Source: Halomicrobium mukohataei DSM 12286
GTDB taxonomy: Archaea > Halobacteriota > Halobacteria > Halobacteriales > Haloarculaceae
Direction: 5' to 3'
Length of the DNA stretch: 32,000 bases
Assembly: GCF_000023965.1 (NCBI RefSeq)
Contig: NC_013201.1
Location: forward strand, 30,001-62,000
The stretch's first letter is position 1, and the number at the start of each line of letters is the position of its first letter. This document shows, in pieces, positions 10,696 through 31,805 of the stretch. The position numbers and the translations under genes were made by a program. Under the pieces are notes generated by a model that saw only the letters and a program-made list of their open reading frames with translations, did no database searches and had not been told where the DNA came from.

Positions 10696-10805
10696 ATTTG
10701 GAACCGCCTGCGAGATTAAATGTAGAGAATATACCGCATAGAGTCGATAATATCTGCGAAGAGATGGAGATGGGACGTACCGTGGGCAAAGTCAAATACC
10801 GACGT

Positions 10806-10865
10806 GTGCAGAGACGGACGAGTGTAGAGAAGGGGGTGTGTAGAGAAGGAGATGTGCAGAGAAGG
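10806..10865 (+). repeat. Four iteron-like direct repeats GTG[CT]AGAGA[AC]GG
   Basis: Copies lie at 10806-10817, 10823-10834, 10838-10849 and 10854-10865, spaced 15-17 bp apart. They resemble the GTGTGCGAGA core of the neighbouring ORB repeats. Confidence 0.7.
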
Positions 10866-10882
10866 AGATGAGAGGACACGGA

Positions 10883-11160
10883 CCCCGTGTGCGAGATGAA
10901 ACGAGAATCCGGAAACCACGACGACTGTGAAGATCGAGGGAACACCGTTTCAGCGGGTTCGGATTGCGTCCCGATTCGGACGACGTGCGGACCCACACAC
11001 CCCGTGTGCGAAATGAAATGCAGACGAACGGAAAGGTACTGGTAGAGAGTCGAGTTCCGACGGCGGTCGGGATCCGTCGCCCCCACACCCCGTGTGCGAA
11101 GTGAATCGCCGTGGAGAACAGAATGGGGAAGTTGACCCCCACACCCCGTGTGCGAGATGA
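10883..11160 (+). repeat. Four ORB-like repeats upstream of orc1
   Basis: CCCCGTGTGCGA[AG][AG]TGA occurs at 10883-10899, 11000-11016, 11088-11104 and 11144-11160. Most copies are preceded by a CACAC or C-rich extension (a G-string on the other strand). Confidence 0.75.
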
Positions 11161-11239
11161 AATCGGCAAAGAAGGAGAGTCCCCTTCCAGCCGGAGTCAG
11201 TGACGGATATCGTCGCAGTGGTCGAGGAGCCGCGTTAGA

Positions 11240-11490
11240 GGTCTATAAAGACGTATCTAGGGATGGCTGACGATCGATAGGTTACTGCAGTCGTTTTAGA
11301 TCGTCGGTATATGTTATGTGTATTTTATCTAAGCTATCTAGACTATCTAGCATATTTTCATTCTCTTTCTCAGTTCTTCTTGCAGTACGGCTTTGGTTTT
11401 TCCTTCTTAGTAATAAGTATTCCTATTGTACTAGCTTATTTTCTATTTTGGTCTTTCAGACTCTCTCTTTGCTGAAAACATCGATATTGG
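11240..11490. other. AT-rich candidate duplex-unwinding element of a replication origin
   Basis: This is the only strongly AT-rich stretch in the window (for example TATATGTTATGTGTATTTTATCTAAGCTATCTAGACTATCTAGCATATTTTCA). It is bracketed by ORB copies of opposite orientation at 11144-11160 (+) and 11552-11568 (-). Confidence 0.6.
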
Positions 11491-11551
11491 CTGCTTCCTG
11501 TCTCAGCTCGCCCGCTCTCCCTAGCACCCCACCCCCACTCTCTCACCGATT

Positions 11552-11568
11552 TCATATCGCACACGGGG
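11552..11568 (-). repeat. Inverted ORB-like repeat closing the origin
   Basis: The plus strand reads TCATATCGCACACGGGG, the reverse complement of CCCCGTGTGCGATATGA. It is followed by TGAGGGGGT. Confidence 0.7.
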
Positions 11569-11577
11569 TGAGGGGGT

Positions 11578-11650
11578 TCACCCACTCACTCACCCACTCA
11601 CTCACCCACTCACTCACCCACTCACTCACCTACTTACTCGCTCACCCACT
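11578..11650. repeat. 12-bp tandem repeat (CCCACTCACTCA)n
   Basis: Four perfect copies span 11581-11628. A degenerate fifth copy (CCTACTTACTCG) and a partial sixth follow. The repeat lies between the origin and the stop of the HEAT-kinase gene. Confidence 0.95.
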
Positions 11651-11674
11651 TCGAGTGCTCTAAACAGTCGACGA

Positions 11675-14640: not shown

Positions 14641-17226
14641 ATGAGTGACTCACGGGAGCCGGACCCTTCGACCGTCGAGAGCCCGAGTCGGCGGTCGCTG
14701 TCGCCCGACTCGTTCGATCACGGGGCAGTGATCGGTCGAACTCCCACGACGGTCGTCCACCGGATCGGGGTCGGCGCGGACGATCAGATCGCGGTCAAAC
14801 ACCCGGCGACCCACGGGACCCTGGGCGGTGACGTGTTCGATTCGTTTCGACGGGAGGGCAAACGGTGGGCTCAACTGGCCGACCACCCCCACATCGTCGG
14901 CGTCGTCGACTGGGGCGAGAGCCCGCTGCCGTGGCTCCACCACGACGCCGACGTGCCGTGGGTCGCGATGGAGTACATGGACGGCGGGGATCTCGGGGAG
15001 TACACGGAGGAGCTCTCCATTGAGGGCAAGCTCTGGGTCGCCGAGCGACTCGCCGACGCCGTCTGGTACGCACACCACGACGGCGGCGGCCTGATCCACC
15101 ACGATCTGAAGCCCGAGAACATCCTCTTCCGCGAAACGCCGGACGAACAGTGGGACGTGCCCAAGATCGCCGACTGGGAGCTCGCCCGGACGCTCCTGAA
15201 CCACTCCGACAGCGTCGGCGTCACCACGCCACAGTACGTCGCGCCCGAACAGGCCCACAACGAGTCGACCGACCAGCTCACCGACCAGTTCCAGCTGGGA
15301 ATCGTCCTCTACGAGCTGTTTACCGGGACCTATCCGTTCGTCGACGGTCCCGAGTCGGCACCCGAAGCGGCACTGATCACGGGCATCCTGCGGAACGATC
15401 CCGTCCCGCCCAGCGAGCGTCGACCCGTGGTGCCGTCGGCGCTGGACGACGTGGTCCTGACGATGCTGGCAAAGGACCCCGACGATCGCTACGAGGCGAT
15501 GCTCCAGGTCCGGAACGACCTGCGTGCGATCGAGCCAGGCGACGACCGCTCCGAGGAACCGGAGCCGAACCCGGCCGCTCGGAGCCGTCCTGACTCCCGT
15601 TCGGTGCCGACCCAGACGGCCGACTGGAACGGTGTCGGCGTCGGCACTGGCGTGGTCCTCGACACCACTGCTCGCGGAGCGGCGGCGATCAGGACCGACC
15701 TGGCAGACGACGGGACCTTCTACCTGAGCGATCTGGACCACGATCTCGAACCCACCCAACGGGTCTCGCTCTACTACGAGGGGGACGATCCGGGAGCGAG
15801 CGACATTATCGAGGTCCAGCCCGTCGAGAGCGACGAGGAGCCGCCCGCAGTGGGCGACAGCGAGACGTTCGGCGAGGGCGTGGTGATCGACACGACCGGC
15901 GACAGCAAGGCGGCCGTCGAGACCGACCTCGCCACCGACGGCGTGTTCTACCTCAGCGGTATCGAGGCGACCCTCCAGACCGGTGACGCGGTCGCGCTTC
16001 GCTACGAGGGATCCGATCCGACGGCGAGTGACGTCTCGCAGGTGGTGCCGATCGACGAACTCGACGCGACGGCGTCCGTCGCGGCCGACGACACCGGAGA
16101 GGGCGAACCCGCGGGGGAATCCTCCCCGGCCGGAGAGGTCGAACCCGCGGAGGAAACACCAGCCACCGACAGCGCCCGGCCGATACGAGGGAGTTGGCCG
16201 CGATCCGGGAACGATCAGGGCCGCACGCACGCAACGGACCAACAGGGTCCCGACGGTTCCGTCGACGTGCTGTGGCAGGCGGAGATCGGGAGCGGTCTCG
16301 AAGCGCCGCCGGTCGTCGCCGACGGGACCGTCTACGCCGGGTGCTCGAACGGAACGACGGTCGCACTCGACGCGGGGACGGGAACGAAACGCTGGCAGTT
16401 CGAGACGAGAAACGACGTCGTCGCCGCGCCGGTCGTCGCCGGTGAGACGCTGTATGCGGTGAGCAAGGACGCCCACGTGTACGCGATCGACCGCGAAGCG
16501 GGTACCGAGCGCTGGGCCTACGACACCGGGAGCGCGATATACGCACCACCGGTGGTGGCCAACGACCGCGTCGTCGTCACCGCACGTTCGGGCGCTGTCG
16601 CGGCGATCCACACCGAGAGCGGAACCGAAATGTGGGCCGTCGAGACGACGCCCGGCATTCGCGTTCCGGTGACCCAGTACGGCCGGCGACGGCTGCTGGT
16701 CGGTGACGACAACGGCGTGGTACACGTCCTGACGAAGGGTGGCTCCGAGCAGGCGACGATCGACATCAGTGGCCGTGGGCGCATCCGAACGCCGATCGTC
16801 GCGCCGGGAAACTCCGGAACGGTGCTGGTCGGTGACACGCTGGTCGACCTACAGCGCGAGACCGTCGTCGATACGCTCGCCCGCGGGGTCCGGTCGCTGC
16901 CCGCCGTCGACGAGGGGACGGCCTACCACGTGACCGATACGGAAGTCAGGGGCATCGAGATCTACAGCGGCGAGCAGATCGTTTCCTACGGCTTCGACGG
17001 CTCGACGAGTCGTCTCGGGACAGAAACGACACCGGCGATCGCCGACGGCATCGTGTACACGGGCCTCGGTGACGGAACGGTCGTCGCGTTCGACGGCACG
17101 ACCGGGCGGGAACGCTGGCGACGAGAGCTCGGCTCGACGGTCGCCGGGTCGCCGGTTCTCCTGGACGGACACCTCTTCGCCGCGACGCGTGACGGGACCC
17201 TCTACGCGCTCGCCGGCCAGGCGTGA
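14641..17226 (+). CDS. Ser/Thr kinase-like domain / duplicated small beta-rich domain / PQQ-like beta-propeller protein
   Basis: The kinase spans about 14700-15530 (IAVKHP, HHDLKPENILF, IADWELAR, APEQ). Two tandem domains lie at 15649-16056 (GVV.DTT...A.TDLA.DG.FYLS). PQQ/BamB-like blades span about 16264-17223 (AAPVVAGETLYAVSKDAHVYAIDREAGTERW and similar). Confidence 0.95.
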   Translation: MSDSREPDPSTVESPSRRSLSPDSFDHGAVIGRTPTTVVHRIGVGADDQIAVKHPATHGTLGGDVFDSFRREGKRWAQLADHPHIVGVVDWGESPLPWLHHDADVPWVAMEYMDGGDLGEYTEELSIEGKLWVAERLADAVWYAHHDGGGLIHHDLKPENILFRETPDEQWDVPKIADWELARTLLNHSDSVGVTTPQYVAPEQAHNESTDQLTDQFQLGIVLYELFTGTYPFVDGPESAPEAALITGILRNDPVPPSERRPVVPSALDDVVLTMLAKDPDDRYEAMLQVRNDLRAIEPGDDRSEEPEPNPAARSRPDSRSVPTQTADWNGVGVGTGVVLDTTARGAAAIRTDLADDGTFYLSDLDHDLEPTQRVSLYYEGDDPGASDIIEVQPVESDEEPPAVGDSETFGEGVVIDTTGDSKAAVETDLATDGVFYLSGIEATLQTGDAVALRYEGSDPTASDVSQVVPIDELDATASVAADDTGEGEPAGESSPAGEVEPAEETPATDSARPIRGSWPRSGNDQGRTHATDQQGPDGSVDVLWQAEIGSGLEAPPVVADGTVYAGCSNGTTVALDAGTGTKRWQFETRNDVVAAPVVAGETLYAVSKDAHVYAIDREAGTERWAYDTGSAIYAPPVVANDRVVVTARSGAVAAIHTESGTEMWAVETTPGIRVPVTQYGRRRLLVGDDNGVVHVLTKGGSEQATIDISGRGRIRTPIVAPGNSGTVLVGDTLVDLQRETVVDTLARGVRSLPAVDEGTAYHVTDTEVRGIEIYSGEQIVSYGFDGSTSRLGTETTPAIADGIVYTGLGDGTVVAFDGTTGRERWRRELGSTVAGSPVLLDGHLFAATRDGTLYALAGQA

Positions 17227-17250
17227 CGACTCGGTTCGCCCGCGATCTCC

Positions 17251-17314
17251 GATGGCACGGTCCCGGATATCACAGTCCCGGATGCCGTAGTTTCAGATGG
17301 CGCGGTCCCGGATG
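17251..17314 (+). repeat. Three direct repeats containing GTCCCGGAT upstream of the AAA+ operon
   Basis: GATGGCACGGTCCCGGAT lies at 17251-17268, CACAGTCCCGGATG at 17271-17284 and GATGGCGCGGTCCCGGATG at 17296-17314. Confidence 0.6.
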
Positions 17315-17475
17315 AGTCTGTGCCCCATGCCGGAACAAAACATTTCCCGGTCCAACCGAAACGTGCGTAGCAACGTGGTTTTCTCAGGAACGACGCCGTT
17401 CTCGTCGCGTGATCGCGCACCGACCGGACCCGACGACGGGCACACGCCCGCGTCGGCCGAGCGGGACTCGGGACG

Positions 17476-18402
17476 ATGACGGTCCCGGAGACGACGGCGG
17501 ACGCCGACACCGTCGGTGAACGCACGGGCGAGCAGTTCGGCGAGCTCTCGGTGCTGGCAGACACCGGGCACGAGAAGGTACCGGAAATCGAGCGCGACGA
17601 CTACCACCACCGCCAGATCGAGGGCGATCGGACGGACGTCGAGATCGTCACCCGCGCGCTGGAACTGGGGATGAACGTCGTCCTCAAGGGTCCCCCCGGC
17701 GTCGGCAAGAGCTTCCTCACGCGGTACGTCTGTGCGATGACGAACCGACCGCTGTACCGCGTGACGCTCTCGGAGACGACGTACCGCGAGGACCTGCTCG
17801 GTCACCTCCATCTCGTGAGCGGCGACGGCGGCGAAACGGTCACGGAGTGGATCGACGGGCCGCTGACCCGTGCGGTCAGGGAGGGAGCGGTCCTCCTGCT
17901 CGACGAGATCAACGCCGCCGACGCCAACACCGTCGCCGCTCTCAACGCCGTGATGGAACAGCGCGCGACCCGGTCGCTGACGATCCCACAGACGGGCGAG
18001 CAGCTCGTCCCACACGAGGAGTTTCGCGTCGTCGCGACCTCGAACCCCGGCTATCAGGGGACCTACGAGCTCAACGACGCCTTCGAGGATCGGTTTCGCC
18101 ACGTCAAGCTCTCCTATCTCCCGGAGTCGGTCGAGGTCGAACTCGTCTTCGACCGGACGGACCTCGACAGGGGGAAAGCAGCTCAGATCCGGGACCTGGT
18201 GTCGTTCGCGAGCCGACTCCGGGAGGCGTACGTCGACGGAGAGCTGTCGACGCCGGTCACGACCCGGGAGCTCGTTCGAATCGCCCGGTTCATGGAAGAC
18301 GACTTCATGACCGTCGGGGAGGCGGCCAGGAGCGAACTCGTCGCGCGCGTCGACGAGTACGACGAGTCGCTGGTCCGAACCCTCATCGACAAACGACTGT
18401 AG
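17476..18402 (+). CDS. CbbQ/NorQ-type (MoxR-superfamily, AAA_5-like) AAA+ ATPase
   Basis: Walker A is VVLKGPPGVGKS. The run WIDGPLTRAVREGAVLLLDEINAA (Walker B), TSNPGYQGTYELNDAFEDRF and the ~300-aa single-AAA size match the NorQ/CbbQ pattern. Confidence 0.93.
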   Translation: MTVPETTADADTVGERTGEQFGELSVLADTGHEKVPEIERDDYHHRQIEGDRTDVEIVTRALELGMNVVLKGPPGVGKSFLTRYVCAMTNRPLYRVTLSETTYREDLLGHLHLVSGDGGETVTEWIDGPLTRAVREGAVLLLDEINAADANTVAALNAVMEQRATRSLTIPQTGEQLVPHEEFRVVATSNPGYQGTYELNDAFEDRFRHVKLSYLPESVEVELVFDRTDLDRGKAAQIRDLVSFASRLREAYVDGELSTPVTTRELVRIARFMEDDFMTVGEAARSELVARVDEYDESLVRTLIDKRL

Positions 18403-20307
18403 ATGCGACTGACAGCACAGACCGAGCCGCCGGACCTCGCCGCCCTCTCGACGCCAGAGCGGGCCTCCAGCGAGCGCCGCCGAGAGCTCGAACGCCTCGC
18501 GTCGCTGTGTACGGACAGGGAGAGGACGATCTCGATCGCCTTCGACGAGGAGCGAGCGTTCGCTCGGCCGGCCGAGGGGGCCGGCCCGGACGCCTACGAG
18601 ATCGTGCTGCCGACGGAGAAATACGAGCAGCCCGGCACGGAGCTGCCGCCGGGGCTGTGGGATCGCTCGATCCAGGTCGCCTTTCTCTTCCACGAACTGG
18701 GCCACGTCTACTACTCCGACTTCGATCGCTTCGGCGACTGTTTAGAGCGGGTCGACGGGCGCTGGCGCGACCTGTTTCGGATGGTGTACAACACCGCCGA
18801 GGACGGCGTCGTCGAGACTCAGATCGCCAACGAGTTCTCAGTCACCGACGACTTCGTCCTCCTCAACGACGTGCTCGTCTCGCGGGCCGACGAGCGACAC
18901 CGCGCGTACGTCGACCTGTTCGACCTCGCGACCGCCGACGGCGAGCCGGTCCAGTCCTACACCGTCTTCGAAGCCCTCGCAGTCGGGCTGCTCGACCGTG
19001 GCTTCGTCGACAGCGGTCGCTTCGCCGCCATCGTCGACCCGGACGACGACCGGCGTGTCGTCTACGACGGCCAGCGGGAGGCGCTCGTCGACCTCGTCCC
19101 GGCGATGGACGAGTTCGTCGCCGACGTGCTCTCGGAGCCCGACGGCACCCGGCGGGTCGACCGGGCCCACGACTTCTTTGAGACCGCCAGAGACACCCTC
19201 GCTGGGCTCCCGCCGCGACAGAACGGTCGGCTCCAGACCGCGCCGGTCCGGCCCAGCGACGCCCGGGCCCGCGCCGGCTGGACCGCAGACGCGGCGGACC
19301 GGCTGCCCGACGACGGGGCGGCCAGCGCGCACGTCGCCCGAGATCGCGCTGCTGACGACCGGTCCGCCTCCGGAGCCAGCGGTGCGGGAAGCGTCGCCGA
19401 TCCGGACGAGGACCGGCGGCCGCCGGGCCGCGTCGAGGACGACACGGTCAGACGGGTCCGGCGACGGAGCGTGCGCGCCCAGTCGAACCGGGCGGGCTCG
19501 GGCCGGTCACCCCTCGAACGCGAGGCCCGACACCTCCTCGATGTCGTCGACGACGAGTCGACGGCTCTCGAAGAGGTGATCGTCGTCGACCCCGCCGAGG
19601 ACGGTGGCGACCGGGACCGCTGGGACGACGCGGTCGGGCGTTCGAAGCAACTCCAGCGGGACCTCTCGACGCAGCTTCGCCGCGAGCGCCGTCCCAGAGA
19701 TGAGCCTGGTCATCGCACCGGCCGACTCGACGGGCGGCGACTCGTCGGCGCGAGCCACGGGGCCCAGCGGGTCTTCACCCGCCGGGAGTCCGGGACGGCC
19801 AAAGACCACTCCTGTCTGGTCGTGCTGGACCGGTCGGGATCGATGGACGGCGAACCGATCCGGACGGCCGAGACTGCGACGGCCCAGCTCGTCCACGCGC
19901 TGTTCGCGGTCGGGGTCGACGCGTCCGTGCTGTCGATCTGGGAGGGGTATCCGTGTCTGGAACTCCCCTTCGGGGGTCGCCCGTCCGAGCACGTCGACCG
20001 GCTGATGACCGAACGTGCGGACTGGGGGACGCCGCTCTCGACGGCCGTCGCCGTCGCCCGTGAGCGCCTCGACGACGGCCGGGGATCTCACCCGTTCGTC
20101 GTCGTCGTGACCGACGGCGCGCCGGACCACCCCGACCGCTACCAGTCGCAGCTGGCGGCGTGTACCGTTCCCGTGTTCGGCGTCTACATCGGGTCGGAAC
20201 CGGGCACTCACACCGAGTACTTCGACCGGATCGTCCACGCCGAGACCGACACGCTCGCACGAACGATGCAGCGCCTCGTCAGGGCGCTGTTCTCGACGGA
20301 GGCCTGA
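18403..20307 (+). CDS. VWA-domain protein (NorD/CbbO-like partner) with an N-terminal HExxH motif
   Basis: The start ATG directly follows the upstream TAG (TAGATG at 18400-18405). The C-terminal VWA domain has the MIDAS motif VVLDRSGSMDG plus FVVVVTDGAPD. The N-terminal region has FLFHELGHVYYSDFD and a downstream NTAEDG. Confidence 0.9.
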   Translation: MRLTAQTEPPDLAALSTPERASSERRRELERLASLCTDRERTISIAFDEERAFARPAEGAGPDAYEIVLPTEKYEQPGTELPPGLWDRSIQVAFLFHELGHVYYSDFDRFGDCLERVDGRWRDLFRMVYNTAEDGVVETQIANEFSVTDDFVLLNDVLVSRADERHRAYVDLFDLATADGEPVQSYTVFEALAVGLLDRGFVDSGRFAAIVDPDDDRRVVYDGQREALVDLVPAMDEFVADVLSEPDGTRRVDRAHDFFETARDTLAGLPPRQNGRLQTAPVRPSDARARAGWTADAADRLPDDGAASAHVARDRAADDRSASGASGAGSVADPDEDRRPPGRVEDDTVRRVRRRSVRAQSNRAGSGRSPLEREARHLLDVVDDESTALEEVIVVDPAEDGGDRDRWDDAVGRSKQLQRDLSTQLRRERRPRDEPGHRTGRLDGRRLVGASHGAQRVFTRRESGTAKDHSCLVVLDRSGSMDGEPIRTAETATAQLVHALFAVGVDASVLSIWEGYPCLELPFGGRPSEHVDRLMTERADWGTPLSTAVAVARERLDDGRGSHPFVVVVTDGAPDHPDRYQSQLAACTVPVFGVYIGSEPGTHTEYFDRIVHAETDTLARTMQRLVRALFSTEA

Positions 20308-20310
20308 ACC

Positions 20311-23300
20311 GTGTTCGATCGGACGCCGCGGTCGCTCCGTGTCGGCTTCGAGACCGGACACCTCTCGGGCGAGTCGGTGATCGACCGCGCGCTCCCAGCC
20401 CTCGGTTCGGAGACGATCGCGCGGCGACGAGCAGCGCTCGCGGCGCTCGCGGCGGCCACCGACTCACGGCCCGACCGGACGACCGAAGTCGTCGACGCGG
20501 TCGAGTCGTCGATCGGACCGGGAGCGACCCCGACGCGGGCAGAGCTGGCGGCGTTGCGTGATCTGGGCTGCCGTCGGCCGCGGGCGTTCGCGCCGCTGGT
20601 CGAGACGTTCCGACGGCCCCTCACGCATGCCGGCGAATCCGCCGTCGACACCGCCGCGCTCTCGGCGCTCCTCGGTGATCTCGGCACCGCGGCTCCGGGT
20701 GTGGCAAAGCCACTGCTCGGCCCGCTGGTCGACGCGGCCGACGACGCCCACCCGGCAGTCCGAAACGAGGCCGCCTGGGCGGTCGTGCGGGTCGCGACGA
20801 GCGAACCGGCCATGCTTCGGCCCCTCGTCGCCGGCCTCGTCTGGGAGCTGGACCGCGAGAACCCGGCCACCGTCCGTGACGCGCTCGCGACGCTCGGCCG
20901 GATCGGACAGTTCCTGCCCGCCCACCTCGCGGGACTGGACGCGATCGCGTCGCTGCTCGACCACCCGTCCCCGGACGTTCGGACCGCCGCGATCGAGGCC
21001 CTCGGGGAGACGGCGGGACGCGGTACGAAGTTCGACACCGGCGTCTCAGCACCGGCCCGCGTCGAGCCCTTTCTGGACACCGTTGCCGAGCGCGCGACCG
21101 ACCCGGAGCCACAGGTCCGGGCAGCGGCCCTCAAGACGCTGGGACGGGTAGCTCGCCACGAGCCACGCCTGGCTGGGACGTACACCCAGCGGTTCCTGGC
21201 CGCGACCGACGACGACGACCGCCGCGTTCGGCACACGGCCCTCAACGCGATCGGTGACACGTTCGATCCGTCGACGATCGATCTCGCGCGCTTCCAGCGA
21301 CGGGTGGTACCCCGGCTGACCGACGGAGACGACGACGTTCTGGGTGCCGCCGTCGGGGTGCTCCTGACGGCCGTCCGGGCACTGCGCTCGGACCACCCCG
21401 GACGGGCACGGTATCTCGTCGATCTGCTCGTGTGGTTCCAGCTGTCGCCCCACAGCGGGCTGGGCGTTCCGGATCCACTCGACGAACTGGGCTCGGAACT
21501 GGCCGCACTCGCCGATCTCGACCGGTATCTGGAAGTCACGCGCACGCTCCGAGACGCCGACGACGACTCGCTGCGCCACGCGGGCGTTTCGATCTGCGAC
21601 GCGATCGCGCGCCACGCCGACAGCCATCGGCTCGCGGCCGTCGGCGTCCTCCAGTCGATGCTCGCCGACGAGGACGAGCACGTGCGGCGGCGCGTCCTGT
21701 CTGTCTTCGAACGACTCGCCGAGATCGAACCGACCCTGTGCTCGCTGCTCGGGCGGATTGCCTGGCCCGTGGCCGCCTACGATCCCGCGGTGCGACCCCA
21801 GGCCGTGTCGGTGCTCGCAGCCACCGGACAGACCGACGCCAAGCACCACACCGGACCGGTCGCCGTGCAGTGTCGCGTCCTCCGGGACCGCCGGGACGCC
21901 GAGGACGAGGGCGACGGGATGGATATTCTCGATCCGGACCCGGCGTCCGAACCGCTCCAGCGACTCGCCGAGGCCGCGCCGGAGGCCGTCACCGAGGCGG
22001 CACCGACGCTGGTCGAGTTCCTCGGCGACGACGAGTGTGACGCGCTCGTCGCCGAGGCCCTCGCTACTGCCGTCGCCGAGGGTGGCCGACTCACGACGGC
22101 GACCGTTCGGCGTCTCGAAGCCGTCGTCCAGTCGGACCCGGTCGCGCCGCCGCTGCTCGCGTGGCTCTCGACGCTCCTTCTCCTCGACGGCGACGAGGCA
22201 GCGCGCAGACGGGCACGCGACCGCCTCCACTCCCTGGCCGAGCGACGCGAAGAGACGCCGCTGCTCGCGTGTCTGTCCGTGCTCGTCGACCACGAGCCGA
22301 CCGTCGTCGCCGAGGTGCTCGGCTCCTGTCCGCCCGGCGAGACGCTCTCGGAGTCGCGCGCCCGGCGACTGGCGAGGCTCGTCACCGCTCACCCGCGACT
22401 CCTGTTGCGCTGTCGGACCGGCTGGTCGCCGTTCCCCGAGAGCGCACGCGAGCGCGAGCGCCCCGGACGGACGGCGTGGCCGACGGCGCTGGCCGAGACG
22501 GCTCCCCAGACCGTCTCGGCGACTGACTGGCTCGCAGAGCGGTTCTGGACCGACGACGGCGAACTGACCGCGTCCCTGCTCGAAACGATGGGCCGCGCGG
22601 ACTCGCTCCCGGGCGGTCCCGACGATGCGTGGCGACACCACCCCAGTCCCGCGGTCAGAGACGCCGCCTGCGCGCTGCTGGACGGTGACCCAGACACAGA
22701 CGGGGACGCCGAGCGGGGCGCTTCGACGGTCGACCCGGCAGCGGCCACGGCCGACACCGTCGACGAGATCGCGTCCCGCCTCGCCGCGGCGTCTCGCGAC
22801 CGCTGTCGCCGCGCCTGCGAGCGTCTGGTCTCGATCGCCGTCCACGCTCCCTCCCTGCGTCCGACCGTCCGTCAGCAGCTCCTCGCCAGTACCCCCACGC
22901 TCCGGGAGACGGCCTCGCCCGTCGCCGTCCTCGGCGCGCTGTCGACGCTCGCTCCCCGCGTCGAGACCCCCTCTGAGCGGACGGCCTCCTCGGCTCCACC
23001 GGCAGAGAGCGTCGGGGCGTTGCTCTGTCGGTACGCGTCCGCGCCGTCGCCCGGCGTCCGCGACGTTGCACTGTCCGCGTTGCGTGTCGGGGCGACGGAC
23101 GAGCCGGCGGCGCTCGCGGACGTGGTGATCGAGCGACTGCGCGACCCGTCCGACGCTGTTCGCGCCCAGGCCGCCCACACGGCCGCCACGCTGGTCGGAG
23201 ACTCCCTGCGCGTCTCCTCGCCCCTCGTCGACGCGCTCTGTGACGCGGTCGACGGCCCTCGATACGTCGCGCTCGCGGCCTGTCGCGCGCTGGGTCACTG

Positions 23301-24768
23301 CGGAGCGATCGAGCCGTCGGTCACGGACCGCGTGGTCGCGGCGTTGACGACGCACCTTCGCGCACGCGAGCGCGGCGTCAGGCGCTCGGCCGCCGGTGGG
23401 CTCGCCCGAATCGGTCACGCCGATCCGGCTGCGCTCGTCCCGGTCGCCGACACGCTGTGTGACCGGATCCGGACCGACAGCGTGACGCGGCCCGCTCTGT
23501 TGTCCGTGGTGACGATCCTGGTGACGGAGTGCTCGGTGGCACTCGACTCACTCGTCGAGCCGTCGCTGACGGCCCTCGTCTCCGACACCTCTCCGACCGT
23601 CACCCGTGCCGCCGGTCGCTTGCTCGCCGCCGTCGCCGAGGACGCGCCCGGCACCGTTCACGGACGGCTCCACCCCGTCGGCGAGCGCCTCCACGAGGAG
23701 TACGACGGCGAGATCGTCACCAACTTCCGGGACATCGCTCCCAGCCCGCTGTCGACGTACTGGCTCTTTCGGGTCGTCGCCACCTGCGCGCGGGCCAACC
23801 ACACGATCACGGAGTCGTTCGCGTGGGCGCTGTCCGAGACCGTCGACTTTCTCACCTCGCCCGCGGCGGCCTCGCCCCACTACGACCTCCCGCGCGACAG
23901 CGTCACCACGGACGGACTGGCGACGGTGACCGCGCGAGCGGCGGGGCTCGGCGGCGACTCGTCCTACGAGACGATCCTCGAATCGTGGCCGGGCGATCCG
24001 ACGAAACCGTCCCTGGAGCCGGCGGTGACCGCGCAGTTTCTCGTCCTCGTCGACGACCAGACGCGGGACCGCTCGTTCGAACACATCGAGAATCACGTCG
24101 CGCCCGCCGACCGCGACGACGTTCTGGCGGCACTGCTTTCCCAGTCGGTCAACCTGAACCGCTACGAGGCCGTCTTCGCGTCGCTCACCCGGCTCCTCCC
24201 GCTGAGCGACGACGAGGGGCTGCACCGCCGCGGCGTCGCGACGCTGCTCGACGCCTGCGAGGCCCACAACTGGGCGGTTCGCGTCGACGCCATCGAGGCG
24301 ATCGCGACGCTCGGAACCACCGCGGTGCTCCCGGCCGACGAGGCGATCGGTCACCTGCTGGGACGGCCCGGGCGGGAACCGCGAACGCACGAGGCGATCG
24401 TCGACGCGGTCCTCGACCTGCTGGGCCACGCCGAACGCACGCCCGAGACGGTAGCCACCGCGATGGCCGTCCGGTACGAACGCGGCGGACCAGCGCGTCG
24501 CCGACTCGCCGTCTGGCTGCTCGGGCGACTGGCGACGCGCCACGCGACGGTCCGCTCGCGAGCGGTGGCGACCCTGCTCGCGGCGCTGTCGGACTCGGAC
24601 CGCTGGGCGAGAGAACGGGCCGGCGAGGACCTGGCCGCGATCGCGGCGATCGATCCGGAGCCACTCGCCGCCCACCGCGAGCGACTCGAACGTCGGGTAA
24701 CGCGGGCCGACGGCGAGGTGGCGGATGACCTCCGGACGTGTCTCTCCGAACTGGACGACCCGAGGTAA
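20311..24768 (+). CDS. Giant (1485 aa) HEAT/ARM-repeat protein
   Basis: A GTG start lies 3 nt after the VWA stop. HEAT-type helices carrying the characteristic D/N-x-x-VR recur along the whole length. Examples are HPAVRNEAAWAV, SPDVRTAAIEALG, EPQVRAAALKTLG, DRRVRHTALNAIG, SPGVRDVALSAL, SDAVRAQAAHTA, ERGVRRSAAGGL, NWAVRVDAIEAI and DRWARERAGEDL. Confidence 0.85.
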   Translation: MFDRTPRSLRVGFETGHLSGESVIDRALPALGSETIARRRAALAALAAATDSRPDRTTEVVDAVESSIGPGATPTRAELAALRDLGCRRPRAFAPLVETFRRPLTHAGESAVDTAALSALLGDLGTAAPGVAKPLLGPLVDAADDAHPAVRNEAAWAVVRVATSEPAMLRPLVAGLVWELDRENPATVRDALATLGRIGQFLPAHLAGLDAIASLLDHPSPDVRTAAIEALGETAGRGTKFDTGVSAPARVEPFLDTVAERATDPEPQVRAAALKTLGRVARHEPRLAGTYTQRFLAATDDDDRRVRHTALNAIGDTFDPSTIDLARFQRRVVPRLTDGDDDVLGAAVGVLLTAVRALRSDHPGRARYLVDLLVWFQLSPHSGLGVPDPLDELGSELAALADLDRYLEVTRTLRDADDDSLRHAGVSICDAIARHADSHRLAAVGVLQSMLADEDEHVRRRVLSVFERLAEIEPTLCSLLGRIAWPVAAYDPAVRPQAVSVLAATGQTDAKHHTGPVAVQCRVLRDRRDAEDEGDGMDILDPDPASEPLQRLAEAAPEAVTEAAPTLVEFLGDDECDALVAEALATAVAEGGRLTTATVRRLEAVVQSDPVAPPLLAWLSTLLLLDGDEAARRRARDRLHSLAERREETPLLACLSVLVDHEPTVVAEVLGSCPPGETLSESRARRLARLVTAHPRLLLRCRTGWSPFPESARERERPGRTAWPTALAETAPQTVSATDWLAERFWTDDGELTASLLETMGRADSLPGGPDDAWRHHPSPAVRDAACALLDGDPDTDGDAERGASTVDPAAATADTVDEIASRLAAASRDRCRRACERLVSIAVHAPSLRPTVRQQLLASTPTLRETASPVAVLGALSTLAPRVETPSERTASSAPPAESVGALLCRYASAPSPGVRDVALSALRVGATDEPAALADVVIERLRDPSDAVRAQAAHTAATLVGDSLRVSSPLVDALCDAVDGPRYVALAACRALGHCGAIEPSVTDRVVAALTTHLRARERGVRRSAAGGLARIGHADPAALVPVADTLCDRIRTDSVTRPALLSVVTILVTECSVALDSLVEPSLTALVSDTSPTVTRAAGRLLAAVAEDAPGTVHGRLHPVGERLHEEYDGEIVTNFRDIAPSPLSTYWLFRVVATCARANHTITESFAWALSETVDFLTSPAAASPHYDLPRDSVTTDGLATVTARAAGLGGDSSYETILESWPGDPTKPSLEPAVTAQFLVLVDDQTRDRSFEHIENHVAPADRDDVLAALLSQSVNLNRYEAVFASLTRLLPLSDDEGLHRRGVATLLDACEAHNWAVRVDAIEAIATLGTTAVLPADEAIGHLLGRPGREPRTHEAIVDAVLDLLGHAERTPETVATAMAVRYERGGPARRRLAVWLLGRLATRHATVRSRAVATLLAALSDSDRWARERAGEDLAAIAAIDPEPLAAHRERLERRVTRADGEVADDLRTCLSELDDPR

Positions 24769-26215: not shown

Positions 26216-28261
26216 TCAGATCACCCTGTTCTGGAGCCGATCCCTGTGTTTGGCGTTGTACAGGAGCTTGACCCGGTCCGACGCGGGCGTCCCGATGCAG
26301 GTGAGGACCACGTCCTCCTGTTCGACCTCCTCGTCGGAGAGGATCTGTTGCAGCTCCATGTCGATCTCGCCTTCGACGACGACGGCCGCGCAGTTCGTAC
26401 ACGCCCCGGCACGACAGGAGGAGGGCCAATCGAGCCCCGCCGCCTCGGCGGCCTCGAGGACGTATTCGTCTCGCTCGACCTCGATCGTCCCGTAGTCCTC
26501 CGGCGGAAGATCGCTCGTGGCGGCCCGCGTGAACGCCTCTCCGTCTCGTGGGTCCCACCCTCGATCTGCGACGACTTCGTCGTTCAGGTACTCGACGGTC
26601 GCCGTCCGCGAGGACGACGCGGTCGAACCCCGGTCGCTCGATCGCTCCACTGCACCCCGCGAGCCCGTGAGGTGGTAGCCGCCGTTGGGGTCCGAGCGAT
26701 ACGCCACCCGGCCGTCGTCTTTCAGGTCGTCGAGGGCGTCGAGGACGGCTCCACGGCTCGCGTCGAGCGCTCGGCCCAACTCGGCGCTCGAAACCGGCGT
26801 GGTGCCCCGTCGCGATCGGTCCCTGATCGCCTCGTACACCGCCTCGGCCCCGATGCTCGACGCTCTGTGCTGGGACCCGCCGGTCTCTCGATCGCCGCTC
26901 TGGTCGGCCCTCGACACGTCGACCTCGGTCCCCCTCGCGCGCTCGACCCCGCGCCGGGTCGGCCTGTAGCCGGAGGGTCCGTCGGAGGTGTACTCGACCA
27001 GGTTCGCCTGCTTGAGTTCGTCGAGCCGATCCAGCACCGACTGTCGCCCGGCCTCGACGTGCTCTGCTATCGTCTCGCTGGACACCGTCCGCTCCCCGCT
27101 GTCGGTGAGTTCGTCGACGACTGCGAGCAGATACTCCGTCGATACGGTGTCTGTCGGTTCTGCTTGGTGCTCTGCCGTCTGCTCGTTCCGTCCCGAGTCG
27201 CTCGTCTGCTGGGTGTGGCTGTGCTGTGATTCGCTGGACTGCCCGGCCTCGTGGCGCACTCTCTCGCCGGCATCGACCGGGTCGTCGACCCGCTCTGCGA
27301 TGATCGTCGGCAGCCGTCCACCGCTCCGGACGGCGCGTAGCGCTCGCTCGAACAACTGGACGCTCTCGTATCGCGACCGCTTCTCGGTCTCCAGTGCCGT
27401 CAGCACGACCGCGTCGATGGCCTCGGTCACGTCGTCGCGGTAGTCGCTGGGCGGCGTCGGCGGGTCTCCGTAGACGATGTCGTGCATGATCCCGGTCTGA
27501 CTCCCGGTGTAGGGCGGTTCGCCGGTGAGCAGCGCGTAGACGATCGCACCGGCCTGATACACGTCCGTCAGCGTGTCGGGATCGCCGAACTCGTCGGACT
27601 CGAACTGTTCGGGCGCGGCGTACGCCACCGACAGTCCGTCCATCGTTCCGGTCTGCTCCGAGAGGACCCGAGACAGCCCCCAGTCGCCGATCTTGGGGAG
27701 GTCCCACGTCCCGGCGGCCGTCTCGCGAAAGAGGACGTTCGCCGGTTTGAGATCGAGGTGAACGATCCCGTAGGCGTGGGCGACGGCCAGGCCCCGGCAG
27801 AGACATTCGCCGATCCAGAGCGCGTGGGTCAGTTCCAGTCCGCCGTCGCTCGCGTCGAGGCGATCGGCGAGCGTGCCACCGCCCATGTACTCGATGGCGA
27901 TCCAGGGCAGCCGGTCGCCGATGTCGACGACGCCGACGATGTGGTCCGAATCCGTCCAGCGCTGCTTGTTCCGTTCCCGACCGTCGACCGTCTCCCAGCG
28001 CTTGGCTTCGCTGAGAAACCGTTCGATCGCGTCGCCGGTGAGCGTCCCGGCTCGGGGTGGCTCCTTGAGTGCGATTCTGTCCGGTGGCTCCTCGTCGGTG
28101 ACCCGTCCCTCGTACACGACGGCCTGTCCCCCTCGACCGATCGGCTCGTCGCTGGTCTCGATGTGCTCGTATCGCAGCGATCGACGCGGGGGACTGGTGA
28201 CAGCTTCGATGTCGGGTGGGTTCCGATCGCTCATCGTCTCTGCTGTCTGGCCGGATCTCAT
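26216..28261 (-). CDS. Ser/Thr kinase / two winged-helix domains / full-length halophile-type [2Fe-2S] ferredoxin fusion
   Basis: The kinase spans about 27360-28200 ([38 protein letters not shown]). wHTH-like segments lie at about 26950-27140 and 26664-26840. The ferredoxin at 26219-26602 reads [16 protein letters not shown]...[82 protein letters not shown]. This is near-collinear with my recollection of the Halobacterium ferredoxin, including its N-terminal extension. Confidence 0.9.
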
Positions 28262-28347
28262 TAATCCTTTTCCGGTGTCACCGGGTCTGATTCGTCAGTT
28301 CACGCTCGACTCGTAAGCTTGAATTGAACGGTTGCCAACTATCTGGT

Positions 28348-29004
28348 ATGCGTGCAACGATCCGTGCGGCCGATCCCGAGTCGACGGCGTCTCTCTCCGT
28401 CACAGACGAGTCGGCTGTACGCGTCTACCGCGTCCCCGAGCGCGGAGAGGCGGTCGTCGCCGACAAGGACGGGTCCGTCACCTCGCTGGGCGTCCACGAC
28501 ATCTCCGTGTCCCGCGAGTTCGACGACGACGGCGAGCCCGGATACATCGAGTTCTACAAGGAGGACAGCCAGCTGTACGTCCAGGACGCGGGTTCGAGCA
28601 GCGAGACGGTACAGCAAAACGCCTTCGGCGAGATCGACCTCTCCGACGGCGAGCCCTCGCTGATCACCGGCGACTGTACGGTACAGATCGGCTACAGTAC
28701 GGCACTCGAAGTCGAGGTCGAGCAGTCCCGTGGGAACGACCGTCCGATCCCGTACAAGGCCGACCTCGTGCTCAAGATCTGCGATGTCAGGTCGACCAAC
28801 GAGGTCAAGAGCGAACTGCGAGAGCTCAAAGAGATGATGCACGCGGCCGACATCTCGGACGAGCGGTACCGCAACGTCCTCGCCGACGTGGAGACGGCCT
28901 TCGAAAACGTCGAGAACACGAGAGGCGACGAGCTACCGACCGAGGCCGTCCAGAAAGTCTCCAGTGCGACCAAACGGGCTCGCAACTACTTCCTCAGTTC
29001 CTGA
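28348..29004 (+). CDS. Hypothetical protein: divergent FHA-like beta-sandwich plus helical C-terminal half
   Basis: Spacing is FHA-like: ISVSREF corresponds to VSR.HA, LYVQDAGSSSETV to the D.GS.NGT region, and LITGDCTVQIG to L..GD.I.IG. The canonical GR and the His and Asn are not conserved. ATG 28348 is preferred over TTG 28324. Confidence 0.6.
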   Translation: MRATIRAADPESTASLSVTDESAVRVYRVPERGEAVVADKDGSVTSLGVHDISVSREFDDDGEPGYIEFYKEDSQLYVQDAGSSSETVQQNAFGEIDLSDGEPSLITGDCTVQIGYSTALEVEVEQSRGNDRPIPYKADLVLKICDVRSTNEVKSELRELKEMMHAADISDERYRNVLADVETAFENVENTRGDELPTEAVQKVSSATKRARNYFLSS

Positions 29005-29161: not shown

Positions 29162-30400
29162 TCACGCCCCGGAGCCAAACTCCCGATCCCACTCGTCGAA
29201 GCGCCGCACGCTCTCCTCGGAGAGCGAGGCCGAGGTGCGTTCGAACGCCACCTGCACGTCCTGTGGCCGGACGGCGTCGACCGAGAGGTCGTACTCTCTG
29301 ACGGCGTCGAAGCCACGGTCGGCGACGGACGCCAGTCCCGTGTTCGACCGGTTGATCATGGCGTTGACCGCGGTCCGACACACCGCCTCCACGTCACTGC
29401 CGGTGAAATCGCGGTGGATACACTCGCTTGCGATCGCCTCGACGGGCGTGTCGACGCGTCGACCAGTGTCCGACAGCTGGAACGCCGATGGACTCCCCTC
29501 GAAGGTAATCCCGCCTTCGACGGTGTTGATCGCGACGATCTCCTCGGCCGCGCCCACGTCGGGCAGCGGGATCAGCACCCGTCGCGGGAAGCGACGACGG
29601 ATCGCCTGATCGAGGTCCCACGGGGTGTTTGTCGAGCCCAGGACCATCACGAAACTATCGTCGTTCTTGTCGATCCCGTCCAGCTCCGACAGCAGCGTGT
29701 TCAACACGCGGCGAGACGTTTCGTCCAGGTCGGACTCGCGTGACTGTGTCAGCGCGTCGATCTCGTCGAGGAAGACGATACTCGGGCTCATCTCCTCGGC
29801 GAGATCGAACAGCGCGGTGATCTGCTTGCTCGTCTCGCCGAAGTACTTCGAGAGCAGCCCTCCGAGCTTGACGTCGAAGAACGTCGCGTCGAGCGAGCCG
29901 GCGACCGCAGACGCCAGCAGCGTCTTCCCGGTTCCCGGCGGGCCGAACAGGAGGACGCGATCGGTCGCGGCGACGGCGTCGGGCTTGTCGTCGATGCCGC
30001 CCAGCGTGATCGTCCGCTTCAACTCGCCTTTGACCTCGTCGAGGCCCCCGATGTCGTCCCACGTGACCTCCGTCTGGGAGATGAACGATTCGACTTGCTC
30101 ACGAAAGTCCGACTCCGGCTGTTCGGCGTCCTCTGCCCCGCCGTCGCGGTTCTCGCCGATGTCCTCTTCGGAGAGGGCCTCGCCGCTCTTTAGCTTCGAG
30201 ATCGACGACTCCAGTTGCTCTTTGCGGTCCGGATACGTCGTTTCCCGGATCGTTTCGAGCTCTTCCAACCGATCGAGAGACTGTGAGAACGCTTTCGCGG
30301 CCTTCTCGTGGTTCTCCTGATCGAGGTGTGACTTCCCCTTCTTGAGGTACTCTTCGTACTGTTCCTGTAGGATGTCCTCTTTGTACTGTCCGAGATCCAT
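29162..30400 (-). CDS. Vps4/CdvC-like AAA ATPase with an N-terminal MIT-like helical domain
   Basis: The N-terminal segment (YEEYLKKGKSHLDQENHEKAAKAFSQSLDRLEEL) looks like a three-helix MIT domain. Walker A is LLFGPPGTGKT and Walker B is IVFLDEIDAL. STNTPWDLDQAIRRRF is typical of the meiotic/Vps4 clade. The C-terminal SEESVRRFDEWDREFG resembles the Vps4 C-terminal helix. Confidence 0.85.
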   Translation of the reverse strand: MDLGQYKEDILQEQYEEYLKKGKSHLDQENHEKAAKAFSQSLDRLEELETIRETTYPDRKEQLESSISKLKSGEALSEEDIGENRDGGAEDAEQPESDFREQVESFISQTEVTWDDIGGLDEVKGELKRTITLGGIDDKPDAVAATDRVLLFGPPGTGKTLLASAVAGSLDATFFDVKLGGLLSKYFGETSKQITALFDLAEEMSPSIVFLDEIDALTQSRESDLDETSRRVLNTLLSELDGIDKNDDSFVMVLGSTNTPWDLDQAIRRRFPRRVLIPLPDVGAAEEIVAINTVEGGITFEGSPSAFQLSDTGRRVDTPVEAIASECIHRDFTGSDVEAVCRTAVNAMINRSNTGLASVADRGFDAVREYDLSVDAVRPQDVQVAFERTSASLSEESVRRFDEWDREFGSGA

Positions 30401-30436: not shown

Positions 30437-31081
30437 TTAGCGGCCCAGCTCCTCGTTGAAGATGTTCTCACTCTCGTCTTCTTCTTTCGTGAGCTCGCTC
30501 AGCGAGACCGGGTCCTCGTTGGCGTCCTGGAACAGCGTGTCGATCTCCGACTCCTCCATCGTCGCCCCGAAGTCCTGCGAGACGCTGGTGAGGGTCCGGT
30601 TGAGCTGATCGCCCTTGCGCTGGATCCACTCCGTGTCCTTGTTGCGCTTCTCGATCTCGCGGACGATGTCGTTCATGAACTCCTGTACGTCTTCCTCGCT
30701 CATGTCCCGGAGCGACGACTGGGGCTGCTCTTCGAGCCGCTTCTTGGCGTTTTTGGCAGCCAGCAGGGTGGTGTACTCTTCCAGCATCTCCTGCCACGCG
30801 GCTTCCTTGTTCTCGTAGTCCCGCTTGAGCTGCTTGGCCTTTCGCTTCAGTCGCTCTTTTTTAGGTCCGGCGACCTTTCGCCCCTTCTCGACCAGTTGCT
30901 CGAACTGGTGATCGAGCCGTTCGAGCTCCTGTTCTTTCAGCTCGATCTGCGTCTCGAAGGTTCGTGCTTCGAGGTCGAGTTCGTCGGCGTCTTTCTCCAT
31001 GAGTTCGTTCGAACTGCCGCCCCAGCTACCTGGTATCCAGTCTCTGAACTGAACCATATACGAGTACATGGTAGGCACCAT
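30437..31081 (-). CDS. Snf7/ESCRT-III-superfamily-like coiled-coil protein
   Basis: A basic helical hairpin (KKERLKRKAKQLKRDYENKEAAWQEMLEEYTTLLAAKNAKKRLE) is followed by an acidic helical tail (MSEEDVQEFMNDIVREIEKRNKD...EIDTLFQDANE). This polarity is typical of Snf7. A TATA-like TTTTATTA abuts the first ATG, so the true start may be MVQFRDW at 31057. Confidence 0.6.
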   Translation of the reverse strand: MVPTMYSYMVQFRDWIPGSWGGSSNELMEKDADELDLEARTFETQIELKEQELERLDHQFEQLVEKGRKVAGPKKERLKRKAKQLKRDYENKEAAWQEMLEEYTTLLAAKNAKKRLEEQPQSSLRDMSEEDVQEFMNDIVREIEKRNKDTEWIQRKGDQLNRTLTSVSQDFGATMEESEIDTLFQDANEDPVSLSELTKEEDESENIFNEELGR

Positions 31082-31136: not shown

Positions 31137-31805
31137 CTACGAAAACTCGACGGTCTCGTCGTCGCCGTCTTCGCTCAGTACGTCGGATTCCGTTTCGATG
31201 TTCCCCACCTCTGTGGGCTCTTCGCTCACTTCTTCGTCGGTCTCGGATGTGTCGTCGCTCCACTCCTCTTCGAGTTCGGAGCCGGTGTGGAGCTGGCTCG
31301 CGCCCTCACTGAACGAGTCCAGTGCGTTCGAAGAGAGCGTATCCGTCTGACCGAGCACGTCGTGTAGCTCCTCGTTTTTCATCTCCTCTTGCTGGAACAG
31401 TCGGACCAGTTCGCTCTGGTCCATCTCCCGGAGCTGGCTCCAGTAGTCGTCGCCCCGGCTCTCGCCGATCTCCTTGATGTTCGCCAGGTTCGAGGCCAGA
31501 TTCCGCTGTTTGCTCGTCTCGTCGATCCGCCCTCTTACGGTTTCGAGCTCTTCTTTGATCTCTTCTGCGTCGCGAAGGAAGTCCTGTGCTCGCTCTTCGT
31601 TACCGGCTTCCTTCGCCGACTCGTACTTCGAGCGCTTGTCATCGAGCGCTTCTTTCAGCTCCTCTCGGCGACTCTTGAGATCGTCTAGCTTCCGTTCGGC
31701 TTCCTGTCGCTTGACCTGATGGTCCTCCTTCGGACGATCGAGCAGGTGGCCGTCGTCACTGTCGCCAAACAGTGAGCCGAACCACGACTTCACGGTAGCA
31801 AACAT
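31137..31805 (-). CDS. Snf7/ESCRT-III-superfamily-like coiled-coil protein (paralog-like)
   Basis: The N-terminus MFATVKSWFGSLFG resembles that of the neighbouring gene (VQFRDWIPGSWGG). A long charged coiled coil is followed by a very acidic tail. The gene is first in a same-strand three-gene cluster ending with the Vps4-like ATPase. Confidence 0.55.
   Translation of the reverse strand: MFATVKSWFGSLFGDSDDGHLLDRPKEDHQVKRQEAERKLDDLKSRREELKEALDDKRSKYESAKEAGNEERAQDFLRDAEEIKEELETVRGRIDETSKQRNLASNLANIKEIGESRGDDYWSQLREMDQSELVRLFQQEEMKNEELHDVLGQTDTLSSNALDSFSEGASQLHTGSELEEEWSDDTSETDEEVSEEPTEVGNIETESDVLSEDGDDETVEFS

Follow-up and report, generated by a model that had tools for sequence, protein, structure and literature searches.

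The 32-kb stretch of DNA analysed here, called the window, corresponds to positions 30001-62000 of NC_013201.1, a plasmid of Halomicrobium mukohataei DSM 12286 (plasmid coordinate = window coordinate + 30000). On its minus strand, positions 26216..28261 are occupied by a single open reading frame (ORF) of 681 amino acids (aa), which begins with ATG and contains no internal stop (HMUK_RS16845, WP_012807433.1; plasmid positions 56216..58261(-)). A preliminary description of the window, made from its sequence, had placed a kinase, two winged-helix-turn-helix (wHTH)-like segments and a ferredoxin (Fd) in this one frame, and had suggested a comparison with Pkinase, Fer2 and wHTH profiles. The profiles agree with that arrangement. 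Pfam Pkinase (PF00069) matched residues 39-257 (E 5.7e-24; 85.4 bits against a cut-off of 31.7) and Fer2 matched residues 592-656 (50.9 bits against 21), and Pfam profiles placed two wHTH-type stretches at residues 375-438 and 486-534. Among the wHTH profiles only HrcA_DNA-bdg exceeded its threshold (30.9 bits against 21), MarR_2, Rrf2, HTH_11, HTH_20 and TrmB all remaining under theirs. On these grounds the product is predicted to be one soluble polypeptide of ~73 kDa, made of a kinase, two winged-helix (wH) modules and a complete halophile-type [2Fe-2S] ferredoxin domain. No transmembrane-like segment was detected in the protein (KD19 maximum 1.16), which rules out the membrane association implied by the arCOG label 'membrane associated'. 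Three disordered linkers rich in Ser and Thr (S/T) separate the domains, and the AlphaFold2 (AF2) model is disordered over residues 332-370, 451-467 and 534-550. The features of the gene, all on the minus strand, are the following (pLDDT, predicted local distance difference test score; dN/dS, ratio of nonsynonymous to synonymous substitution rates).

26216..28261, minus: whole ORF, kinase-wH-wH-ferredoxin, 681 aa; start alternatively M10 at 28234
27302..28174, minus: Hanks-type Ser/Thr kinase domain, residues ~30-320 (Pfam Pkinase, motifs, AF2, Foldseek, dN/dS)
27146..27283, minus: disordered linker 1, residues 327-372, 11/46 S/T (pLDDT <50 at 332-370; composition; dN/dS 0.5-1.5)
26936..27145, minus: winged-helix domain 1 (wH1), residues 373-442 (HrcA_DNA-bdg/Rrf2/HTH_Crp_2 profiles; AF2; Foldseek)
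26855..26935, minus: disordered linker 2, residues 443-469, 7/27 S/T (AF2, composition)
26663..26854, minus: winged-helix domain 2 (wH2), residues 470-533 (MarR_2/HTH_11 profiles; AF2; alignment)
26600..26662, minus: linker 3, residues 534-554, 9/21 S/T, holding GTG at 26648-26650 and ACG GCG at 26600-26605
26219..26599, minus: complete halophile-type [2Fe-2S] ferredoxin domain, residues 555-681 (NF041393, PDB 1e0z/1doi, dN/dS, tree)
26390..26416, minus: cluster-binding loop, with C616 (TGT 26414-26416), C621 (TGT 26399-26401) and C624 (TGC 26390-26392)
26297-26299, minus: fourth cluster ligand, C655 (sequence, alignment)

Integrity of the fusion gene

We then asked whether the kinase and the ferredoxin are really encoded together. 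The frame runs unbroken through both domains, from the N-terminal end of the kinase to the C-terminal end of the Fd, in the window, in LC1Hm (91% nucleotide identity), in the metagenomic protein P0001 (87% protein identity), in the P0002/P0003 pair (63-65%) and in the distant ortholog P0005 (~48%). The search for orthologs of the same architecture, which the preliminary description had called for, therefore returned a single frame kept in at least five lineages. The linkers differ in length between orthologs by whole codons only. Moreover, dN/dS was 0.15-0.23 in the kinase and 0.20-0.23 in the Fd domain, against 0.4-1.5 in the linkers; both domains are under purifying selection. P0002 and P0003 begin at the position of M10, so this codon (window 28234) may be the true start.

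The preliminary description had also stated that the frame holds no internal start or stop. The second half of this statement stands; the first does not, since an in-frame GTG lies at V538 (window 26648-26650). It is from this codon that RefSeq/PGAP, on identical DNA of strain JP60, calls a 144-aa 'fer' coding sequence (CDS) only (WP_049940919.1), and on LC1Hm the same pipeline calls a 134-aa 'fer' (WP_255318061.1). The two starts are not equivalent. The window has GTG at V538 where LC1Hm has GTC, and GCG where LC1Hm has its own GTG start; L003, a locus 63% identical, lacks any ATG, GTG or TTG in the 42 codons upstream of the Fd domain. The ancestral fer start has itself disappeared, the fusion reading ACG GCG ACC GTC (T-A-T-V) where stand-alone genes read ATG CCN ACC GTC (M-P-T-V). 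Because the frame is unbroken, the internal starts are not conserved, the ancestral ATG is lost and the domains are under selection, the comparison confirms, at the level of sequence, a real and conserved fusion, predicted to be made as a single polypeptide in at least five lineages.

Kinase and Fd occur together in only one 50%-identity cluster, plus a fragment from H. katesii, in a set of 1.84 billion representative proteins. About 1,040 representatives match the protein at E <= 1e-30, and those listed all do so through the kinase domain. A scan of genome contigs for wH2-Fd, based on highly specific 8-mer patterns, yielded H. katesii and otherwise unrelated Fds only. The H. katesii copy is the sole disrupted one: it has lost one nucleotide at codon 247, within the LTGEPPY region of the kinase, and is thereby split into ORFs of 268 and 423 aa. 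This ortholog, from H. katesii DSM 19301, lies at L005 9255-11272 (KB905378.1) and also in L006, and the NCBI and Logan assemblies, which do not differ across this gene region, both show the same deletion; it is either a pseudogene or a sequencing error. P0005 (L004 1194-3191) is arranged as cold-shock domain (CSD)-kinase-wH-Fd, with the CSD added at the N-terminus and wH1 missing, which, as read from its sequence, shows that modules have been shuffled while a core of kinase, wH2 and Fd is conserved.

The public annotations of this gene are in conflict. Older RefSeq gave the full 681-aa WP_012807433.1, and current PGAP gives the 144- or 134-aa 'ferredoxin Fer' with no protein for the kinase part; the sites concerned are window 26216-26650 (minus strand), NZ_CP039376.1 81635-82069 and NZ_CP044130.1 81893-82297, where the internal GTG starts are not conserved. 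The choice of the short 'fer' start in PGAP is probably driven by the NF041393 equivalog model. A systematic annotation error is thereby exposed, in which the Fer model shortens the gene to a 'fer' CDS and hides the fusion.

Kinase, ferredoxin and winged-helix domains

The catalytic motifs of the kinase can be read throughout: the G-loop G42xGG, K66, E85, H-L-D170-L-K172-P-x-N175, D193-W-G and A-P-E218, all unchanged in an alignment of five orthologs. The AF2 model of this domain has pLDDT >90, and in Foldseek its fold superposed on PknB, PknA and Stk1 at TM (target) 0.72-0.86. By motifs and modelled fold, the kinase looks catalytically competent. It is one of four kinases of the same family in the window (7-1857(+), 11675-14500(-), 14641-17226(+) and 26216-28261(-)). 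As the preliminary description had proposed, its closest paralog there is the Hsp70-GrpE kinase at 7-1857(+), to which it is 53% identical (the HEAT-kinase reaches 41% and the kinase-PQQ 37%); every motif quoted in support, namely the WIG.CLCR...NVLF run and one other, is common to the two proteins.

The ferredoxin domain is complete. The NCBIfam equivalog model Frdxn_Halo (NF041393) scored 178.3 bits against a cut-off of 150, residues 555-681 covering model positions 2-128 of 128, and the ferredoxins of Halobacterium salinarum (PDB 1e0z) and Haloarcula marismortui (1doi) were matched at E ~1e-52 over their residues 2-128. The claim that the C-terminal residues are collinear with a stand-alone ferredoxin is thus borne out, down to the N-terminal extension that characterises haloarchaeal Fer. 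The cluster cysteines, C616-x4-C621-x2-C624-x30-C655, have exactly the spacing given earlier and are unchanged in five orthologs. The cluster loop SCRAGAC.NC is also shared with haloarchaeal Fer.

This domain differs from haloarchaeal Fer in that it is not stand-alone, has no start codon of its own, is less acidic and falls in a separate clade. The canonical Fer of H. mukohataei, a protein of 129 aa (P0422; ACV46987.1, C7P0K5_HALMD), is encoded on the 3.11-Mb chromosome, and the fused Fd is only 70% identical to it. Fused Fds share 65-71% identity with stand-alone haloarchaeal Fers, whereas the latter share a pairwise mean of 82%. The Halomicrobium-type fused Fds formed their own clade in 197/200 neighbour-joining (NJ) bootstraps. 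The P0005 Fd joined them in 21/200 only, so the tree leaves a single origin unsettled; the shared wH2-linker-Fd arrangement suggests that it derives from the same fusion event. We defined near-invariant Fer positions as those at least 95% conserved in stand-alone Fers (n=73). At 23 of these 73 positions the Halomicrobium-type fused Fds are altered (e.g. R652V/F, L673R/M, Y675R/G, M637L/I/N and A622T), and their net charge lies between -17 and -23, with -15 for the P0005 Fd and a mean of -24 for the stand-alone proteins. With no conserved start, a separate clade and 70% identity, the fused Fd is not the orthologous housekeeping Fer of the cell. It is best described, from these comparisons, as a putatively neofunctionalised extra paralog borne on the plasmid, in which the cluster ligands are kept and the surface is remodelled and less acidic.

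Between kinase and ferredoxin, AF2 predicts two H-H-H-E-E winged-helix units (residues 375-442 and 472-531) at pLDDT 87-97. Taken singly, they superpose on the wH of DtxR/IdeR at 2.2-2.8 A in Foldseek; taken in tandem, their arrangement resembles the wH arrays of ScpB, SelB and Pol III subunits. A wH pair of the ESCRT-II/CdvB-like kind was looked for and rejected, the Foldseek top 50 holding only generic wH (DtxR/IdeR, ScpB, SelB and Pol III subunits). The winged-helix fold that had been recognised in the preliminary description is therefore confirmed. DNA binding is doubtful despite that fold, since the putative recognition helices are acidic or neutral (K+R 3 vs D+E 3 in one H3, and K+R 2 vs D+E 4 in the other). 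In addition, the sequences of these domains change rapidly (dN/dS up to 0.7, 44-56% identity), and P0005 keeps wH2 only. The wH modules more probably tether proteins or nucleic acids than bind operators in the classical way.

The FHA/ESCRT-like locus and the kinase family

The surroundings of the gene are partly described already. Table S2 of Makarova et al. 2024 (PMC10936438) covers this locus as a 'Halo_FHA' ESCRT-like system on NC_013201.1, with an FHA-CdvA-like protein, Vps4 and two ESCRT-III proteins. The neighbouring features are given below.

14641..24768, plus: upstream block conserved beside the kinase-Fd gene in orthologous loci, made of the next four genes
14641-17226, plus: kinase-PQQ
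17476-18402, plus: MoxR ATPase
18403-20307, plus: VWA protein
20311-24768, plus: HEAT-repeat protein, 1485 aa
24805-26049, minus: PitA (PMC10936438 Table S2)
28348..29004, plus: FHA-CdvA-like protein, arCOG13166, WP_012807434.1, divergent to kinase-Fd (PMC10936438 Table S2)
29162..30400, minus: Vps4-like AAA+ ATPase, arCOG01307 (Pfam AAA; PMC10936438 Table S2)
30437..31081, minus: ESCRT-III/Snf7-family protein, arCOG07402 (PMC10936438 Table S2)
31137..31805, minus: second ESCRT-III/Snf7-family protein, arCOG07402 (PMC10936438 Table S2)

The ATG of the kinase-Fd gene (28261) and the start of the FHA gene (28348) are separated by 86 bp (28262-28347). The same gene string, kinase-PQQ, MoxR, VWA, HEAT, kinase-wH-wH-Fd, FHA-CdvA-like, Vps4 and two ESCRT-III, is found in L003 and in H. 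katesii, where the upstream block occupies L003 10989-20963 and L005 12721-21272, respectively. The part from FHA-CdvA-like to ESCRT-III is also present in the P0001 contigs L001 and L002. The PitA gene is an insertion between the HEAT and kinase-Fd genes seen in Halomicrobium only. A PP2C gene is present in L003 and in the P0005 locus. In the latter, the fusion gene is directly preceded by an FHA-CdvA-like homolog (E 1e-10) and surrounded by HEAT-kinase, PP2C and kinase-FtsZ genes. Altogether, kinase-Fd stands beside an FHA-like gene in every locus examined (window, L001, L003, L005 and L004), and Vps4 and two ESCRT-III genes are nearby in the Halomicrobium-type loci (window, L001, L003 and L005). 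PMC10936438 proposes that the FHA domain of such systems serves to recognise phosphorylated proteins, and notes that these loci are accompanied by Ser/Thr kinases and PP2C phosphatases. The preliminary description, drawn up without the locus context, had read the protein as connecting redox state, within one polypeptide, to phosphorylation or to DNA binding. Given the FHA/ESCRT context, the output of the kinase is likely to be read by the FHA protein, through recognition of phospho-Thr, rather than at the level of transcription.

Two further observations concern this region. The FHA-CdvA-like neighbour contains the motifs SVSRE and DAGSSSET, which loosely resemble FHA signatures. At the other side of the window, positions 2001-14000 have a GC content of 0.54-0.64, vs 0.66-0.74 over most of 14-30 kb; this segment holds an IS1595-like transposase fragment and an Orc1/Cdc6 gene (5104-6024(-); 9319-10689(-)) and is consistent with a mosaic plasmid region.

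The kinase belongs to a family whose members are fused to many other proteins. We tallied the non-catalytic parts of the best 120 kinase homologs and found PQQ propellers (~42), FtsZ (6), winged-helix/HTH (5), Fer2 (5), Hsp70 with or without GrpE (4), CSD (4), S1 (3), HhH (3), the DnaJ C-terminal domain (2), EF-Tu domains (2), and KH, NAC, RPA and HEAT (1 each). Among the family members (P0005-P0120) the kinase may stand at either end of the fusion. Fusion of haloarchaeal kinases to entire housekeeping proteins appears to be a wider, undescribed feature brought to light by this locus; we found no account of it in the literature. Membership of a known defence system (PD-T4-6, MADS Mad6 or BREX PglW) was considered and rejected, the PADLOC and NCBIfam matches being confined to the kinase domain; the NCBIfam models scored 67.9 against a cut-off of 460 for Mad6 and 56.7 against 990 for PglW, and no BREX or MADS partner gene lies within the window.

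Possible roles of the fused ferredoxin

What, then, could a ferredoxin do at the end of a kinase? Sensor histidine kinases that contain an Fe-S cluster, such as NreB and AirS, hold it in a PAS or GAF-like domain. The kinase-Fd protein would be similar to them in concept, as a kinase whose activity depends on a cluster carried by the same polypeptide. However, NreB and AirS are histidine kinases and not Hanks kinases carrying a captured electron-carrier protein. The closest precedent, by analogy since homology is restricted to the kinase domain, is mycobacterial PknG (PMC8546545), a Hanks kinase with an iron-binding rubredoxin-like domain, in which autophosphorylated Thr residues in a disordered segment recruit the FHA protein GarA/OdhI. 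Both proteins are soluble Hanks-type Ser/Thr kinases that combine a Cys-ligated iron-binding domain of redox type (predicted as such here) with an interaction module. Both also have disordered segments (Thr-rich in PknG, S/T-rich here) and are paired with an FHA protein, the pairing being known here from gene adjacency. The differences are clear as well. PknG has a small rubredoxin-like domain beside the catalytic core, plus TPRs, whereas the present protein has a complete plant/halophile-type [2Fe-2S] ferredoxin at the far C-terminus, behind two wH domains, and neither a rubredoxin nor a TPR profile was found in it with Pfam. The FHA partner of PknG is a metabolic regulator, and the candidate partner considered here carries a CdvA-like segment and is encoded in an ESCRT-like locus.

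We propose, with a probability of about 45%, that the protein is a redox or Fe-S sensor kinase with the anatomy described above. The Fd domain would be the input module, and the occupancy or redox state of its cluster would modulate the kinase, be it intramolecularly or by a change in the binding of partners. The kinase would then autophosphorylate Thr or Ser in its own disordered linkers, or phosphorylate bound proteins; linker 1 is a candidate segment for autophosphorylation and FHA docking. The FHA domain of the divergently encoded FHA-CdvA-like protein might read these phospho-marks and pass them on to ESCRT-III/Vps4 membrane remodelling, and a PP2C phosphatase of the same locus could reset the signal. 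Such redox sensing is plausible from the sequence features. If it holds, this would be the first Hanks-type kinase with a complete [2Fe-2S] electron-carrier protein, a sensor or adaptor module without precedent. It would also connect Fe-S or redox status to the scarcely characterised Ser/Thr phospho-signalling of archaea, and the adjacency of FHA-CdvA, Vps4 and ESCRT-III would provide a concrete candidate input for the archaeal ESCRT-like system.

The sequence is public and the locus is tabulated in PMC10936438, the fusion itself being hidden by the current RefSeq annotation. In the supplementary tables of that paper the word ferredoxin is attached to unrelated genes only, and its passages on kinases and ESCRT are without a ferredoxin fusion. 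More generally, no published description of a kinase-ferredoxin fusion was found in the literature, in agreement with the preliminary description, which knew of no described example. A kinase-Fd gene beside an FHA/ESCRT-like locus suggests that phospho-signalling is tied to iron-sulfur or redox state in a way not described before.

Several observations weigh against a sensor kinase of this kind. The AF2 model of the Fd is confident in its N-terminal half and of low confidence in the cluster loop (residues 614-639), plausibly because it models the apo form or as an artefact of the multiple sequence alignment. The frameshift, if real, would make the gene dispensable at least in H. katesii. The FHA domain of the neighbour at 28348-29004 gave no significant sequence match in Pfam or PDB, the protein having weak matches only (VPS28, E 0.14 in Pfam and ~1 in PDB); its FHA label rests on the arCOG, HHpred and AF2 assignment published in PMC10936438. 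A family-wide ESCRT link was ruled out by the Haloplanus kinase-FtsZ P0031, whose gene stands alone and has neither FHA nor Vps4 in its vicinity, so that the link holds for the kinase-Fd lineage and not for the whole kinase family. Finally, fusions to housekeeping proteins with no redox function weaken a purely redox-specific explanation, and the variable module may serve for targeting or as bait.

This last idea is the strongest alternative, one that we consider somewhat unlikely and still take seriously. The Fd copy would dock the kinase onto ferredoxin-dependent oxidoreductases, or would be an integrated decoy for a viral or plasmid effector that triggers the kinase and an FHA/ESCRT response. 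The family-wide fusion of whole housekeeping proteins to the same kinase speaks for it, as do the four paralogous kinases with different modules in one window, the plasmid location with a lower-GC, IS-bearing segment nearby, the MoxR-VWA-HEAT block conserved alongside, and the rare and patchy occurrence of the architecture (a single 50%-identity cluster). However, a mimic should keep its partner-facing surface, and nearly a third of the near-invariant Fer positions (23/73) are changed and the acidic charge is reduced. Moreover, PADLOC matches the generic kinase only, known defence partner genes are lacking, and we found no support in the literature. We rank the sensor kinase above targeting or decoy because the cluster site is retained while the surface is remodelled, unlike in a faithful Fer mimic. 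In a bolder version, which we regard as quite unlikely, the whole family would form a surveillance system. Ferredoxin, FtsZ, DnaK-GrpE, DnaJ, EF-1alpha, CSD, RPA and NAC would be baits or state reporters fused to a Hanks kinase, and their perturbation by a viral or plasmid effector (for Fd, cluster damage or redox collapse) would fire the kinase; the FHA-CdvA adaptor would then recruit ESCRT-III/Vps4, and membrane would be remodelled or shed. Such a system, if it exists, would be the prokaryotic counterpart of plant immune receptors of the 'integrated decoy' and tandem-kinase types, wired to an ESCRT machine.

It is improbable that the protein acts as a one-component-like regulator, in which the wH domains bind DNA and the redox state of the Fd, autophosphorylation or both control transcription of the divergent FHA/ESCRT genes. 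The HrcA_DNA-bdg match above its cut-off, the weak matches to Rrf2, MarR_2 and TrmB, the superposition of a single wH on the DNA-bound DtxR/IdeR wH and the 86-bp intergenic region would fit such a role. Against it stand the acidic or neutral recognition helices, the rapid divergence of the wH domains and the loss of wH1 in P0005; in addition, the tandem-wH matches (ScpB, SelB and Pol III subunits) are proteins that do not bind operators.

We judge it very improbable that two products are made, a separate Fd from an internal start and a kinase-wH part that is a separate or decaying gene. The short PGAP proteins and the GTG at V538 agree with this scenario, together with a 134-aa 'ferredoxin Fer' of Halomicrobium sp. 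IBSBa (P0121) that starts inside the same linker and with the frameshifted kinase part of H. katesii. However, the internal starts fall at differing codons and L003 offers none within 42 codons, the ATG of canonical fer genes is gone, all five orthologs read from one part into the other without a stop codon, and the kinase part is intact and under selection. No AT-rich TATA-like stretch was seen by eye upstream of the GTG, and the short calls can be explained by the equivalog model. An accidental, functionless read-through fusion heading to decay, which the H. katesii frameshift, the plasmid location and the rare architecture might evoke, is extremely improbable and largely refuted by conservation down to ~48% protein identity, by purifying selection on all three domain types and by the invariant catalytic and ligand residues.

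A related arrangement was noticed in a metagenome-assembled genome of Salinigranum sp. (JBEPXT010000005.1, L010 ~2750-3426(+)). There, an HTH-like N-terminal segment (MVRLDEADLSDLQRLLRG...) lies in frame with a diverged Fd that is 50% identical to the query Fd and has the Cys ligands, with no kinase.

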